This document shows positions 14 through 6,108 of a DNA stretch of 64,000 bases, in pieces. Both the position numbers and the translations under genes were made by a program. The DNA is from a virus. The stretch's first letter is position 1; each line of letters starts with the position of its first letter. The notes below the pieces were generated by a model, which saw nothing but the letters and a program-made list of their open reading frames with translations, did no database searches and was not told where the DNA came from. The DNA is taken from IMG/VR virus record IMGVR_UViG_3300025534_000004, positions 83,744 to 147,743 of that record. One strand, given 5' to 3'.

Positions 14-1162
14 ATGATCACGGTGTACCAGACTGGCCTCACCGGTCGGCGCGACGACGTGCAGTATCCGGGCTTCGTGGACACCTTGCAGGTGACCGAG
101 CGCGCCATCGATCCAAGTGGCCGGTACACGGGCGAAAAGGGCAACAGCTATTCGGTGCAGCGGCTCATGCCGCGCCCGTTCCTCATGACGGTGCAGGTCG
201 ATCTCTGGACGAGCAATCTCGATCAGAAGCACCAGTTGGCCGAACAGATTCTCACGATCATCTATCCGACCTTCGACATCCAGAACAGCAGCAACGCGCT
301 GGACTGGACGGCGCTCACGACGATTTCGGTCGAGGACATTAGCTGGACCTCGCGCTCCATCCCTGTCGGAACCGAATCCGACATCGACATCATGACGATC
401 ACGCTGAACGTGCCGATCTGGCTGAGCCCGCCCGCCAAGGTGAAGCAGCAGAAGATCATTCAGGCAATCGTGACGAACATCTTCGAGGGTGGGCGCGGGG
501 GCGCGGATGGCCGGATGATGAAGAAGGCGCTGCTGGCGCAGCACGTCACCACGCCGCACAACCATCGTTTGCTGGTGGATGGCGACGTGCTGACCCTTCT
601 GAACGGCCATGGCGGCGAGACCGGCGAGGACGGCGAACCCCTCTCGTGGAAGCGCCTGTTCGAGGAATACGGCCTGTTCGTTCCGGGCCAGAGCCGCATT
701 GCGCTCAATGGCACCGAGGATATCGAGGCCGAGGACCTGATCACCGGCCTGATCACCCTCGATGCCGCTGCGCCGAACAAGCTCCGCTGGCAGATCGACC
801 CCGAGACCCTGCCCGCGAACACGCTGCCCGCCGTGGACGCCATCATCGACCCGGTGCGCACCGCCCCCGGCTCCGGCCTCCCGGCCCCGGTCGAGGGCAT
901 CCGGTACCTGCTCGTGGGGGATGTCGCCCCGAGCCTCGCATGGGGTCAATTCTCCGCCCGCGAGCACGACATCATCGAGTACCGCGAGGGGCAATGGACG
1001 GTGGCGTTCAAATCGGCCGAGGTCGCGGAGCCACAGTTCGTCCTCAACCGGAACAAGGGGCGTCAGTTGCGCTGGAACGGCCGCGAATGGCTGTTGAGCA
1101 TCGACGGCGAGTACGGTCCGGGCTTCTGGAAGCTCATGCTCGCGGCCAATCCTGCCTCCTGA
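14..1162 (+). CDS. T4 gp15-like tail completion/sheath stabilizer (jumbo-phage type), probably 5'-truncated by window edge
   Basis: RLMPRPFLMTVQVDLWTSNLDQKHQLAEQIL and DIDIMTITLNVPIWLSPPAKVK resemble gp15-like proteins of large myophages. Confidence 0.7.
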   Translation: MITVYQTGLTGRRDDVQYPGFVDTLQVTERAIDPSGRYTGEKGNSYSVQRLMPRPFLMTVQVDLWTSNLDQKHQLAEQILTIIYPTFDIQNSSNALDWTALTTISVEDISWTSRSIPVGTESDIDIMTITLNVPIWLSPPAKVKQQKIIQAIVTNIFEGGRGGADGRMMKKALLAQHVTTPHNHRLLVDGDVLTLLNGHGGETGEDGEPLSWKRLFEEYGLFVPGQSRIALNGTEDIEAEDLITGLITLDAAAPNKLRWQIDPETLPANTLPAVDAIIDPVRTAPGSGLPAPVEGIRYLLVGDVAPSLAWGQFSAREHDIIEYREGQWTVAFKSAEVAEPQFVLNRNKGRQLRWNGREWLLSIDGEYGPGFWKLMLAANPAS

Positions 1163-1927: not shown

Positions 1928-2004
1928 TGGATGCGGGCGGGGGACTTGCACCCCCATCGTTGGGTTATGAGCCCAAGCTGGCACTACTTCCAGTCTAGCC
2001 CGCA
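1928..2004 (-). tRNA. tRNA-Met(CAU), initiator-like, atypical D and T arms
   Basis: Acceptor UGCGGGC/GCCCGCA, anticodon arm UUGGG-CUCAUAA-CCCAA, T arm GGGGG-UGCAAGU-CCCCC, encoded CCA. Confidence 0.85.
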
Positions 2005-2090: not shown

Positions 2091-2545
2091 GGGAGGTCCG
2101 GACCGCCCTCGCCTCGGACCGGTTACAGGCTTCCGTGGGTGTGCGGGACTATCTGATGGCGCGGGCCAAGCTCAAGCAGCAGCGACGCGCTGCGTGAGGA
2201 AGAACATGGATGCATAGGCGACCCCGTTGTCGATCCTGTCGTCAGGAAGCAGGCCGACGAGGATTGCCTTTCTTTCCATGCAGGTTTCGATGAGATCGTT
2301 CATACCGGCTCCCATCTTGAATTTGTACTATTTCATCGATCTCGCCACGGGCCGCTACTGGTCCTCGAACGCTCAGGATTTCGTCGCGCCTGCTGATGCA
2401 ACGCCGCTGACGTGGTCCGACCGCGTATACCGTGGTGCGCCCGCTGCTCGACGATCCGGACTTCCGATATACCATGCTGGCCGTCGATGACGCTTCCGGT
2501 CGCGCCGTTCTGCTTCGTCGGCTCAAAGGGCACTATCAGGTTAGA

Positions 2546-4111
2546 TCACGCAGCCACTAGGGCTGGTGTCGTCCCTGATTTCACGGACGCCTCGCGGCGT
2601 TTGGATGACCTCACCACGGCCAGCGACACCCCACCGAAGTAAGGGTTCGTCATTCGTGGGTCGGCGGGGGCACCCCTGCTCCCGGTTCTGCCCGGCCGCA
2701 TGGACCGGACACGTCGCTCCCCGAAGGCGCGCACGACTTCGGCAAGGACAGACGCCTTCGACTGGAACACCGAACCGATAGCCAGCGCACGGCGCTGGCC
2801 GATGTTGGGTGCCGCATTGAGGTCGGCGTGCTTGGTGTGGCCGCACCACAGGCACCGGAAGGTGCCTTGTGATGGGCGATTGCGCTTGTCCACGTAGCCG
2901 CAGGCGTTGCAGGTCTGCGACGAATAGGCCGGGTTGACCTCGGTGGACGTGATGCCGAACCGCTGTTCGATGTCGGCCAATTTCGACTGGATGACGGACC
3001 TGCCGCAGTTCCGCAGGATGGCGTTCAGGCGTCGGGACAGGTCCGGGTTGCGGAAGTCCAGCCGCTCAAGAACCAGTTCCTTCGGGCGCCCCTGCGCCAC
3101 GAGGTGGTTCAGGACGCGGCCGACCTCGGTGCGGAGGAACCCGCGCACGTCCTCGACCAGCGCCCGATACCGCTTGCTGTCGCGGGGCTTCTTCCCGGCC
3201 CGCTGCTGGCTGGCGGCGATCATCGTGAGCAGGGCGTCGTAGCGCCGCAGGCGCCTGAGCCAGCCCTGCCCGAGCAACTGGCCCTCGGAGGTGGCGAATA
3301 GTGTGGAGAGGCCGAAGTCGAGCGCGATGACGCCGTGACCATTGTAGTCAGCACGCGACTTGGCGCACGCCTCGCCCATGTCGGTGACGACGCCGAAGGT
3401 CAGCCGCCCCTCGCGGTTCAGATTGACCTGCACGCCGTTGGTGACACGACCCGGCCGCTCCGCATGGTAGTCGTAGGTCAGCAGCGGGACGGCGATTTTC
3501 CGGCCCGGCTCCATGGTGGACAGGTTGACCCACCAGCCGACCTTGCCGCCCTGCGTGGCCTTGGTCGGGGCCGCGAGGCAGGCGGCCCGGTGGTCGAGGC
3601 GCATGGAGATGCGGGACAGGTCCGGCCTGCGGTGCCGCCCCATGACATGCCGCATGATGGACCGCGCCAGTCGCCGCACGTCGCCGGGGATAATTTCCCC
3701 GGTGTCCTTCATGGCGATGTCCGCCCGGAGGAACCACGCTCCCATGCGGTTCACGACGTGGAGCATGTGCTTGGTGTCGGGCGGCAGGGTGCTCCGGTTC
3801 ACCGCGTCGCGGAATTCGTTGGCGCGGTTGCTGATCCAGCCCTGCAACTGGCCGACGACCTGATACCGGCACATCTGGACCCGGTTCGCCGCGCCGATGA
3901 CGGCGGCGAAGGTCGTCTTGTCCACGTCGTGGTTCTTGTTGAACCGGCCCGTCTCGAAGAACAGCCGCCACTGCTCGCGCCCTAGCAACACCGCGCCCCG
4001 GCGATACGCCGCCAGCAGGTCCAGCACCTTCGCCCGCTTACCCGCCGTCAAGTTCGACGGCAGGAGGTCGGTGCGGTGGACCGGCGGGTGTTCGGGGCGC
4101 TTGCGTGCCAT
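2546..4111 (-). CDS. tnpB: TnpB-family RNA-guided endonuclease
   Basis: RuvC-I VIALDFGL, RuvC-II LVLERL, VNPAYSSQTCNACG..CLWCG zinc finger, RuvC-III HADLNAAPNI. Confidence 0.92.
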   Translation of the reverse strand: MARKRPEHPPVHRTDLLPSNLTAGKRAKVLDLLAAYRRGAVLLGREQWRLFFETGRFNKNHDVDKTTFAAVIGAANRVQMCRYQVVGQLQGWISNRANEFRDAVNRSTLPPDTKHMLHVVNRMGAWFLRADIAMKDTGEIIPGDVRRLARSIMRHVMGRHRRPDLSRISMRLDHRAACLAAPTKATQGGKVGWWVNLSTMEPGRKIAVPLLTYDYHAERPGRVTNGVQVNLNREGRLTFGVVTDMGEACAKSRADYNGHGVIALDFGLSTLFATSEGQLLGQGWLRRLRRYDALLTMIAASQQRAGKKPRDSKRYRALVEDVRGFLRTEVGRVLNHLVAQGRPKELVLERLDFRNPDLSRRLNAILRNCGRSVIQSKLADIEQRFGITSTEVNPAYSSQTCNACGYVDKRNRPSQGTFRCLWCGHTKHADLNAAPNIGQRRALAIGSVFQSKASVLAEVVRAFGERRVRSMRPGRTGSRGAPADPRMTNPYFGGVSLAVVRSSKRREASVKSGTTPALVAA

Positions 4112-5076
4112 CAGGCCGCTTTCGCCGTGACGAAGCCGTAGGACAGCAACCGCCCTTCGCCGTTGCGGACCATCTGCGTCATCCGGTCGAGGCAGGCGTC
4201 ACCCTTGCGGTTCCAGCGGAAGGTGGCCTCGCTGGCATACCTGCCGAGGTGCTTGACGCTGATCTGGTGCCAGACGCCGATGACGGCGCGGCGCATGAAG
4301 CCGTTGAAGGATTCGACCCGGTTGACGTGAACCCGGTGCCCTGTCGCCTCATCGGTGCGGGCATACTCGCGGTCGGAGTGATTGACCGAGAGGTGAGGCT
4401 GGTTCTTGCCGATGTGCTTGTAGGCCGGGAGGCCGTCCGTCATCACCGTGGCCTTCGGGTCCACCACCCCGTCCAGTGCCTCAGAAATCGCGGCCTTGCC
4501 GTGCGTCGGGATGACCTTCGCCACCACATCTCCGCCACGTTCGGCGGCCACGAGAACGAGCGGGCGCTTGGTGCCCCGTCCTTTCGGGTTGGCGGGCGGC
4601 GGCTCGCTGTCGTCGTGGTCACGGGACGGCTTGGCCCGCTTCCGGGGCGGCGCACCCGCATACATCTCGTCAATCTCGACCACCCCGGCGAGAATGGGAT
4701 TGGCTTCGGCCATCATTGCCCGGATGCGGTGCCCGAGGTGCCATGCGGTCGGGTATGAGACGCCCAACATCTCGCCCAACTTGACCGCGCTGATACCCTT
4801 GCTGGATGCCACAATCAGGTAGAACGCCTGCAACCATGTCAGCAGGGGCAAATGCGTCCGGTGCATCGGCGTCCCCGCCGTGACCGAGAAGTGCTTCCGG
4901 CAACCCGAGCAGCACCAGACCCGCTTCGTCCCGATCCACCACGCCTTGCCGACGAGGCCGCAGTGGTAGCACTCAGGGCCGTTCGGCCACCGGGCGTGCT
5001 CGAACCACGCCCGAGCGGCGTCCTCGTCGGGGAACATGGCGTTGAAGGCACGGAGGGACATGGACTGCTGACTCAC
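4111..5076 (-). CDS. IS1595-family (ISXO2-like) DDE transposase
   Basis: Zn ribbon RWPNGPECYHCG..CSGCRKHFSVTAGT, HTH, VEIDEMY, VMTDGLPAY, SVNHS, HVNRVESF. Confidence 0.95.
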   Translation of the reverse strand: MSQQSMSLRAFNAMFPDEDAARAWFEHARWPNGPECYHCGLVGKAWWIGTKRVWCCSGCRKHFSVTAGTPMHRTHLPLLTWLQAFYLIVASSKGISAVKLGEMLGVSYPTAWHLGHRIRAMMAEANPILAGVVEIDEMYAGAPPRKRAKPSRDHDDSEPPPANPKGRGTKRPLVLVAAERGGDVVAKVIPTHGKAAISEALDGVVDPKATVMTDGLPAYKHIGKNQPHLSVNHSDREYARTDEATGHRVHVNRVESFNGFMRRAVIGVWHQISVKHLGRYASEATFRWNRKGDACLDRMTQMVRNGEGRLLSYGFVTAKAA

Positions 5077-5154
5077 GTTGCGACACTACATCTATTCAGC
5101 GTGTTCGTCAACCTGATAGGTCCGGGCTCAAATATCTGATCGGCATTCAGCGAA

Positions 5155-5472
5155 GTGCCCGTCACGCCGGAGATGCTCATCGAGGCTCTCCGCCCGCACG
5201 ACGCGGTGTTGTGGTCCCATCTGGCGCTGGTTGATCATAAGGATGTCGTGGTGTCCGGGCGTCCGGTCAGGGATTTCGATCCCGAGGGCTGTGCCGAGCG
5301 TCTTTCGCGGATCGGAGTCTCGCCCGCGAATTACCGGATCGTCCCGCTCGGCAGTCTCCTGCTCAATGAGGAAGGCGCAGCGATGGTGATGCTCGCCGGA
5401 GGGAAGGCCGTCGGCCTCGACGCCGCCCGCGCTATCGCGGCAGAATGCAGTTTCGTAGAACTTCTTTCTTGA
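5155..5472 (+). CDS. hypothetical protein (possibly 3' part of IS-disrupted gene)
   Basis: Coding-like ORF directly after the IS, without clear RBS. Confidence 0.45.
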   Translation: MPVTPEMLIEALRPHDAVLWSHLALVDHKDVVVSGRPVRDFDPEGCAERLSRIGVSPANYRIVPLGSLLLNEEGAAMVMLAGGKAVGLDAARAIAAECSFVELLS

Positions 5473-5526
5473 CGTTCATCGCTCCTATGGCAGAGTACGG
5501 CCAGAATGCGATTTCAGGAGCCGTCG

Positions 5527-6108
5527 ATGCCGCAGGTCCGGATGTGGAAGTGCCCCAAGACGGGCAAGCTGTTCGAGGACCTCGACGAATACCGTCAGCA
5601 TCTCCGCGAGGTCGCGAGCGAGCGGTTCATGCGCCGGAAGGCCGTTGATTTCGTGCGGGCCGCCACCAGCGAGCTTCGGTGCCAGTCCAGCTTCGAGGAC
5701 ATCGCCGAGTGGATCGTCGCCAACAGCACCATGCTGGCGGTACGGGCTGCCTATCATAATGCCATCGGGTGGCGGCAGGGCGAGCCGAACCTGATCCCGC
5801 CCTTTTTCTTCATCCGGCACGTCGAGTTCAAGGACATGGAGTGGCGTGAGGCCATCCGCCATAACAACCACGCTCCGCTCGGCCAGCCGACAGACCGGGA
5901 TGTGGCCTCATCAGGATGGTATGGACGGTTGATCTTCCGGGCCAAGGGCGACCATTACTGCATTACGAGGGATTTGTTCGCGGAGACCGGCATCAACCTC
6001 TGCAACGGGGTGGGCGGCGACGGGCGCTACCGATACCAAGTGATCCTGTTCGATGAGGATTTCCCGAACCTCTCGGTGATGTCCCGCCTGCGGCAGGAGG
6101 CGGCCTAA
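5527..6108 (+). CDS. hypothetical phage protein
   Basis: CAGGAG RBS; WKCPKTGKLF start. Confidence 0.7.
   Translation: MPQVRMWKCPKTGKLFEDLDEYRQHLREVASERFMRRKAVDFVRAATSELRCQSSFEDIAEWIVANSTMLAVRAAYHNAIGWRQGEPNLIPPFFFIRHVEFKDMEWREAIRHNNHAPLGQPTDRDVASSGWYGRLIFRAKGDHYCITRDLFAETGINLCNGVGGDGRYRYQVILFDEDFPNLSVMSRLRQEAA

Follow-up and report, generated by a model that had tools for sequence, protein, structure and literature searches.

How could a TnpB-type nuclease, with its need for a guide and a target-adjacent motif (TAM), be accommodated in a transposon whose DDE transposase duplicates the target site? The question is raised by an insertion sequence (IS) of the IS1595 family found in a 64,000-nucleotide stretch of viral DNA (positions 83,744 to 147,743 of IMG/VR record IMGVR_UViG_3300025534_000004; the whole stretch is called the window below). 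The evidence assembled here supports the view that an IS1595-family DDE element carries TnpB as a conserved and integral passenger. With slightly better than even confidence, the best explanation of the locus is an autonomous IS1595 transporter IS with a fixed TnpB-type passenger, in which the guide would start at the duplicated 8-mer and the motif RTA would serve as the TAM.

Anatomy of the element and identity of its genes

The element, its ends and its two genes are located in the window as follows.

2528-5124, minus strand (genes): whole IS1595-family transporter IS, 2597 bp, delimited by inverted repeats and an 8-bp duplication
2520-2527, no strand: target-site duplication copy at the tnpB-proximal (right) end, GGCTCAAA (TTTGAGCC in gene orientation), matching 5125-5132 at 8/8 positions
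5125-5132, no strand: target-site duplication copy GGCTCAAA at the transposase-proximal (left) end
5103-5124, no strand: left terminal inverted repeat, in gene orientation CGGACCTATCAGGTTGACGAAC, with the terminus CGGNNYTATCNNNTT kept in related copies
2528-2549, no strand: right terminal inverted repeat, in gene orientation ...GTGATCTAACCTGATAGTGCCC, with the terminus GATAGTGCCC conserved in more than 30 loci
4111-5076, minus strand: IS1595-family DDE transposase with N-terminal zinc ribbon, 321 amino acids, GTG start (Pfam and NCBIfam)
2546-4111, minus strand: TnpB-like RuvC nuclease, 521 amino acids (Pfam Cas12f1-like_TNB, predicted fold, conserved residues)
3317-3319, 3065-3067 and 2822-2824, minus strand: codons of the RuvC triad D265, E349 and D430, respectively

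The inverted repeats are imperfect, with the core CTATCAGGTT (2533-2542) opposite AACCTGATAG (5110-5119), and the element termini read GGGCACTATCAGGTT and, reverse-complemented, CGGACCTATCAGGTT. The end pattern GGnnnyTATC resembles consensus ends of IS1595 subgroups. A first-pass annotation, made from the letters of the window, had proposed a bounded 2597-bp element with imperfect inverted repeats and an 8-bp duplication. Its coordinates held, and the boundaries are not a product of chance, as independent copies possess these ends together with duplications of 8 bp. Terminal inverted repeats and an 8-bp duplication, which together with the transposase type were considered for IS1595 membership, were both present in the window and in ten further copies.

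The upstream gene had been read as an IS1595 transposase, and this identity was borne out by Pfam (DDE_Tnp_IS1595, PF12762, 1.6e-32; Zn_ribbon_IS1595, PF12760, 5e-09) and by NCBIfam (transpos_IS1595, NF033547, 162.7 bits against a cut-off of 75). Two further details of the same annotation were accurate: the transposase and tnpB open reading frames (ORFs) have base 4111 in common, giving TGATG and a 1-nt overlap of stop and start, and the tnpB stop codon (2546-2548) is located 18 nt from the element end.

The assignment of the downstream protein to the TnpB type is based on profile matches, the predicted fold, and conservation of the triad and the zinc-finger cysteines. The protein matched Pfam Cas12f1-like_TNB (PF07282) at 7.2e-15, and a profile of 56 homologues matched Cas12f and TnpB chains in the PDB. 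All three RuvC acidic residues, as already noticed in the first pass, are retained: among the 56 homologues, D265 and D430 were invariant and E349 was present in at least 90%, and the spacing D265-E349-D430 (84 and 81 residues) is canonical. In the ranges given by the profile search, D430 aligned by position with ISDra2 D361 and AsCas12f D401. A CCCC zinc finger (C401/C404/C420/C423), also invariant in the 56 homologues, lies between RuvC-II and RuvC-III.

The AlphaFold2 model of the protein reached a predicted local distance difference test (pLDDT) value of 80.4. When this model was used in Foldseek, AsCas12f (8j12/8dzj) was matched over the whole length (E 1e-14 to 3e-13, template modelling (TM) score 0.60-0.66), followed by ISFba1 TnpB (8iaz, E 9e-12) and ISDra2 TnpB (8h1j, E 4e-10). 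As modelled, the whole protein has a WED-REC-RuvC fold of the Cas12f/TnpB type. Most relatives bear the RefSeq label 'zinc ribbon domain-containing protein', and no IS name is given in the RefSeq entries for relatives. The 521-amino-acid protein is a divergent TnpB-type nuclease, catalytically intact to judge by its residues.

Conservation, independent copies and origin of the pair

At least 361 relatives of about 520 amino acids were found, many of them on contigs of approximately 2.5-2.6 kb, which is the element length. An IS1595 transposase gene was located directly upstream on the same strand at genome loci L002-L009, and the same arrangement was observed at most metagenome loci L081-L148, at assembly loci L158-L169 and on one Salipiger plasmid. 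The pairing spanned TnpB identities from 89% down to 41%, and the identities of transposase and TnpB to the window copy were correlated (r = 0.85, 28 loci). At L006 and L100 the transposase was nearer to that of the window than the TnpB was.

Homologous tnpB genes were situated inside the IS1595 ends, and in relatives the stop codon fell within the right inverted repeat or at a distance of 0-18 nt. Because the stop lies at or inside the right repeat, separate IS605/IS607 ends are not accommodated; IS605/IS1341 ends proper to tnpB would find no room between tnp and tnpB or at the right end. The location of tnpB, its possible own ends and the conservation of the pair had been named by the first-pass annotation as the points on which its reading could fail, and on all of them the reading stood.

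Eleven independent copies possessed perfect 8-bp duplications. Full-length copies of 2568-2617 bp were represented by the window, L003, L006, L088, L092, L100, L102 and L158, and transposase-less derivatives of 1.66 kb with the same ends by L091, L093 and L094. In other copies, the transposase gene was internally deleted. Taken with the transposase-less copies, these show that non-autonomous derivatives retain tnpB and the IS1595 ends. An identical internal deletion, fusing transposase residues ~5-34 to ~286-321 and leaving tnpB intact, was present at L106, L109, L135 and L145, and looks like a spreading non-autonomous derivative. At L169 (Indioceanicola profundi CP030128), a terC gene was interrupted, with TerC fragments on either side; the transposase was reduced to its 136-amino-acid zinc-ribbon part, tnpB was intact, and a second IS1595 transposase was located 1.8 kb downstream.

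Unmatched 8-mers were observed at the duplication positions of metagenome contigs L083, L085/L086, L103 and L159-L164. Within this set, L159/L163, L160, L162 and L164 are identical copies of a 60%-identity element (P0111) with mismatched flanking 8-mers; the duplication of L158 is perfect. The mismatches were treated as repeat-induced assembly chimeras or as recombination between copies, and were not counted against target-site duplication.

The element is rare: when 401 genomes from the class of one carrier were sampled, 1 contained it. The tnpB-less IS1595 transposases of those 401 genomes, counted in 45 of them with genome G245 included, were just 33-43% identical. Five host genomes contained 1-3 matches each, which is too few for per-genome logos.

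A group of TnpB relatives in A+T-rich DNA (L095 at 3328-5584, L099, L113 and L115), 67-71% identical, was found without an IS1595 transposase and with a different right terminus, …GATGGTAGTACT. The ORF directly upstream at L095 contains a TnsA-like endonuclease N-terminal domain (Pfam 3.5e-20); it may represent a third type of partner, or may simply be a neighbouring gene.

The nearest TnpBs outside the clade were 31-37% identical. The outgroup tnpB at L010 has a serine recombinase gene directly upstream, and the outgroup includes IS607-annotated copies in the Thermus phages TMA and YS40 (33% identical). In a quick, midpoint-rooted maximum-likelihood tree with Shimodaira-Hasegawa-like approximate likelihood-ratio test (SH-aLRT) support, 13 transposase-linked and 7 solo members fell into one group (SH-aLRT 86), sister to the L010/L012/L015 group (joint node SH-aLRT 97). 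Such a topology is consistent with one capture event, in which an IS1595 lineage acquired an IS607-type TnpB, and with the transposase having been lost repeatedly thereafter; as the tree is quick and midpoint-rooted, the scenario is offered as an inference.

With regard to its setting, the window belongs to a 147.7-kb virus record, and the host of the element is a T4-like giant phage genome, in which it occupies an intergenic spot. In silico deletion of the element with one duplication copy restored an intergenic spacer between two small ORFs. No further copies of the element were found within the phage record. Upstream of the insertion are a tail-sheath-like gene (14-1162, plus strand, PHROG 2.7e-66) and a tRNA-Met gene (1928-2004, minus strand). 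In contigs of the source sample, the element borders on other flanks, with junctions precisely at positions 2528 and 2525.

Hot-spring metagenome contigs contained the element alone (2533-5119). Copies from runs X2/X3 differed from the window at 1 position out of 580 nt in the tnpB part 2533-3112, and at 40 positions (about 4%) in the transposase part 4109-5119. The pattern suggests mosaic exchange between transposase and tnpB lineages.

Insertion-site motif, candidate RNA and proposed mechanism

Four further features, all on the minus strand, are relevant to the guide and the TAM.

5133-5135: R-T-A motif (ATA in the window) adjoining the left duplication copy on its 5' side, candidate TAM and target motif (flank counts)
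2528-2914: candidate omega-RNA (right-end element RNA, reRNA) scaffold, from the tnpB 3' end through the right inverted repeat (synonymous suppression, covariation)
2574-2579: 5' arm AUCAGG of the best covarying helix, pairing with CCUGAU of the right inverted repeat at 2535-2540
2508-2527: predicted guide template, consisting of the duplicated 8-mer and 12 nt of adjoining flank, which read-through beyond the right end would transcribe (from the geometry of canonical TnpBs and the RTA/W asymmetry)

Gathering independent insertions, as the first pass had envisaged, made a comparison of flanks possible. Among 28 distinct left flanks read in gene orientation, 24 had TA directly before the left copy of the duplication (binomial p = 1.6e-29 versus local composition), with RTA in 23/28 and RTAW in 22/28. 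At the mirrored position past the right duplication copy, TA was present in just 4 of 43 flanks (left versus right, Fisher p = 5.6e-11), and the duplication began with A or T in 39 of the 41 right flanks. These counts define the site 5'-R-T-A|W-N7, which is non-palindromic, and insertion is consequently orientation-specific. As a control, an automatic search for inverted repeats and duplications was applied to 28 loci of tnpB-less IS1595 transposases, with L180 (genome G245) left out; no clean ends were obtained, the best duplication matched at 6/8 positions, and the control carries no weight either way. A solo subfamily formed by L127 (3571-5701) and L130 (3708-5689), 39-40% identical, differed in its termini (GGCTWTGCGACATCCGAGGTTGAA) and had perfect duplications of 8 bp (AGGTTTGT and AAAGAAGG); its flanks hint at a different motif.

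The second line of evidence concerned the 3' end of tnpB. Among identical four-fold codons, third-position identity was about 0.45 over codons 31-390, 0.62 over codons 391-420, and 0.74, 0.72 and 0.70 in three blocks over codons 421-510. Amino-acid identity over the blocks with raised values was no higher. Synonymous change was suppressed across the last ~130 codons (~390 nt) of the gene, and the best-supported structured core of the candidate scaffold was confined to 2528-2690 (~160 nt).

Alignments of the last 163-260 nt revealed local helices with compensatory changes. In alignment A4, 95.7% of cells were paired and 10 pairs exhibited double changes; none of 500 shuffles reached the observed values, and sliding the partners sideways reduced pairing to 38-52%. 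The AUCAGG/CCUGAU helix corresponds to A4 columns 130-135 with 169-174, and its three variable pairs switch together (GC16/AU4; CG9/GC6/UG3; CG12/GC6), with variable triplets AGG/CCU, GCC/GGC and GGG/CCC. In a second hairpin, CCGGGAGC...GCCCCCGG, Ser/Pro codons shift to Gly/Thr codons in concert, which indicates that the amino acids of the protein tail follow nucleic-acid pairing. This C-terminal tail (residues 469-521), predicted to be disordered in the AlphaFold2 model, is encoded by the stretch that contains the covarying helices. These are features expected of an omega-RNA that overlaps the gene and extends through the end of the transposon. The long-range pairs proposed by RNAalifold (A2 63-64:322-323; A4 11-13:179-181) involve columns that never vary, and count neither for nor against such an RNA.

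Combining these results, the following mechanism is proposed. The DDE transposase would bind the imperfect terminal repeats and insert the element through an 8-bp staggered cut. With a single insertion orientation at 5'-R-T-A|W-N7, RTA would always be found outside the duplication, on the transposase-proximal side. Owing to the 1-nt stop/start overlap, tnp and tnpB would be co-expressed. The omega-RNA scaffold would be formed by folding of the final ~160-390 nt of the tnpB transcript, with the right inverted repeat as part of it, and read-through beyond the right end would add a guide that opens with the 8 nt of the duplicated 8-mer.

The unoccupied site would be a target because RTA precedes the same 8-mer and flank there; TnpB with its RNA would recognise only this site and cut it, and recombination would copy the element in. 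Homing or retention would result; co-infecting phage genomes, plasmid copies and sister chromosomes are examples of DNA molecules between which it could take place. Self-cutting would be avoided, since at an occupied site ...GTGCCC, and not RTA, precedes the guide-matching sequence, and the left junction could pair with the guide over 8 nt only.

That the IS1595 element thereby acts as an RNA-guided homing element, with a fixed TAM just outside the duplication and the duplicated 8-mer as guide seed, driving through phage, plasmid and chromosome populations, is put forward tentatively, as a prospect clearly short of even. In the boldest version, TAM recognition by TnpB may itself polarise or select the DDE insertion site.

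The same observations can be read in other ways. One of them, unlikely in our estimate and still to be reckoned with, places an omega-RNA in the geometry of DDE-associated Fanzors: the 3' duplication copy would belong to the scaffold, the guide would follow it, and RTA|W would be a preference of the transposase and not a TAM. A duplication within the scaffold is described for Fanzor1/2, and right-flank nucleotides for IS607 scaffolds (PMC13565253, PMC10711439); the nearest outgroup of the TnpB clade is IS607-type, and the first duplicated base is restricted to W. The 8-mer is otherwise unconstrained, however, so a scaffold or TAM role for it is hard to see, and a guide beginning after the 8-mer would leave variable bases 5' of the target in place of a fixed TAM. 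Moreover, the motif is one-sided (24/28 versus 4/43), in contrast to the two-fold symmetry that is usual among DDE target preferences.

Juxtaposition by chance or nesting, in which an IS607/IS1341-type tnpB element with its own ends sits inside an ordinary IS1595, is highly improbable. The IS607 linkage of the nearest outgroup TnpBs speaks for it, but the 1-nt overlap of tnp stop and tnpB start, the tnpB stop inside the IS1595 right repeat or at most 18 nt away, the solo derivatives with IS1595-type ends and 8-bp duplications, and a pair kept down to 41% identity all speak against it. Nested insertion was rejected, as no separate IS607-type ends fit around tnpB within the element.

A DNA-level function of the covarying 3' region, as subterminal transposase sites or a transposition hairpin, would leave TnpB as a passenger with another role, for example as a regulator or a nuclease supplied by another RNA source; this is judged slightly less probable than the Fanzor-like geometry. 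IS1595 elements are known with unrelated passengers (10.1101/2021.05.26.445724). Both terminal repeats vary at a triplet identical to the one that covaries in the main helix, and a DNA-level role for the 3' helix, such as an internal transposase site, may account for this. Rfam contained no family match at E <= 1, and the single-sequence fold z-score was only -1.3, a value that is uninformative in G+C-rich DNA. On the other side, only six paired bases are common to the repeat core, and the flanking TATC/TT of the repeat is not shared. Covariation is also seen in other helices, at a distance from the repeats (A2 columns 153-172 and 77-98; A4 helices 4, 6 and 7), synonymous suppression extends over ~390 nt, well past any terminal binding site, and the RuvC triad is conserved, in contrast to TldR-type repressors.

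The shared triplet, the Rfam result and the fold z-score belong to a series of points that weigh against the proposed mechanism. The NCBIfam model guided_TnpB (NF040570) scored 70 bits, below its cut-off of 100, and over the C-terminal half only. In distant subfamilies, TA is replaced by CT (L127, L130) or CA (L009), at just 3 sites, and RTA could be the target preference of the transposase itself. An exact search of viral contigs for the restored (empty) junction gave no match, and among contigs of the source run none skipped the element; the search for an empty-site allele was thus negative. Since a break is left by cut-and-paste DDE excision in any case, the benefit of TnpB is argued to be less obvious than in IS605 (PMC13565253).

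In an anaerobic-digester metatranscriptome (run X15), a 268-nt contig covers 2555-2822 with 11 differences, and other contigs of this run cover parts of tnp and tnpB. The 268-nt contig was not used as support for an RNA, because its strand, ends and RNA origin are not shown and it may derive from DNA.

Comparison with known systems

The first-pass annotation had described the locus as a TnpB pairing different from those with IS605 and IS607. The DDE partner, the inverted repeats and the duplication bear this out; as a type of pairing it is not new, since TnpB-DDE combinations are already reported in the main text of PMC10691335. Six DDE-associated TnpB branches with terminal inverted repeats, DDE-1 to DDE-6, are described there, with the tnpB 3' end less than 250 bp from the transposon end and solo copies bearing the same ends. 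A 2026 review lists ISL2, IS630 and IS1031 as DDE partners and calls such systems rare and uncharacterised (PMC13565253). IS1595 elements, for their part, are known to carry passenger genes ('tIS') and constitute one of two such IS families (10.1101/2021.05.26.445724). IS1595 is not named in the main text of PMC10691335 or in the review PMC13565253, and a literature search whose scope excluded the PMC10691335 supplement and ISfinder returned no paper naming an IS1595-TnpB pairing. As DDE-TnpB branches and IS1595 passengers have both been reported, the pairing in the window is a further case of a described kind.

The review PMC13565253 calls for the characterisation of TnpB and other OMEGA systems outside IS605/IS607, and argues that DDE elements should gain little from TnpB. 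The present family offers a compact, well-bounded case, with a predicted TAM (RTA), a guide expected from the duplicated 8-mer and a candidate scaffold running through the terminal repeat. Natural controls are available in the transposase-less derivatives that keep tnpB and in the subfamilies with different repeat triplets. The family would add a nuclease lineage of about 520 amino acids with a short candidate TAM, and the presence of the element in a T4-like giant phage makes homing between co-infecting genomes plausible. If the proposed mechanism is true, a duplication-making DDE transposon has its own solution to the guide/TAM problem of TnpB, keeping the IS605 logic while tolerating the duplication.

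Compared with DDE-1 to DDE-6 as presented in the main text of PMC10691335, the window element likewise combines TnpB with a DDE transposase inside inverted repeats, with the tnpB 3' end within 250 bp of the terminus (18 bp here, 0-18 in relatives). Solo tnpB copies with the same ends occur in both, and some members of those branches are located on viruses or plasmids. That text differs in naming only IS630 (DDE-6), and gives no target motif, guide geometry or RNA structure.

The IS607 TnpBs with their reRNA (ISXfa1, PMC10711439; Thermus phages TMA/YS40) are the nearest relatives outside the clade and share the long TnpB format and the D-E-D spacing; an RNA overlapping the 3' end of the gene is expected in both. 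Their partner is a serine recombinase, and inverted repeats and duplication are absent, whereas the window element has a DDE transposase and both features. With IS200/IS605 TnpB (ISDra2), the fold is shared, as is the proposed logic of a left-flank motif as TAM and a guide from the right flank. Those elements, in contrast, employ a Y1 HUH transposase, single-stranded DNA and scarless excision, and produce no duplication; in the window element, the first 8 guide nucleotides would be duplicated target sequence.

Fanzor1/2 in eukaryotic DDE transposons resemble the window element in the TnpB-type nuclease, the inverted repeats and the duplications; their RNA runs through the terminal repeat, as the candidate omega-RNA of the window element would. 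They differ in being eukaryotic or of giant viruses, and their short fixed duplication (e.g. TA) forms part of the TAM, with the 3' duplication in the scaffold (PMC13565253); in the window element, by contrast, a variable 8-bp duplication is formed and the fixed motif is external to it. The IS1595 tIS share with the window element the zinc-ribbon transposase, the inverted repeats, the 8-bp duplication and a single passenger inside the ends (10.1101/2021.05.26.445724). Here, by contrast, the passenger is TnpB, conserved across the transposase lineage and retained after loss of the transposase. New in this family are the one-sided RTA|W site, the suppressed synonymous change at the tnpB 3' end, and the covarying helices that include the terminal repeat.

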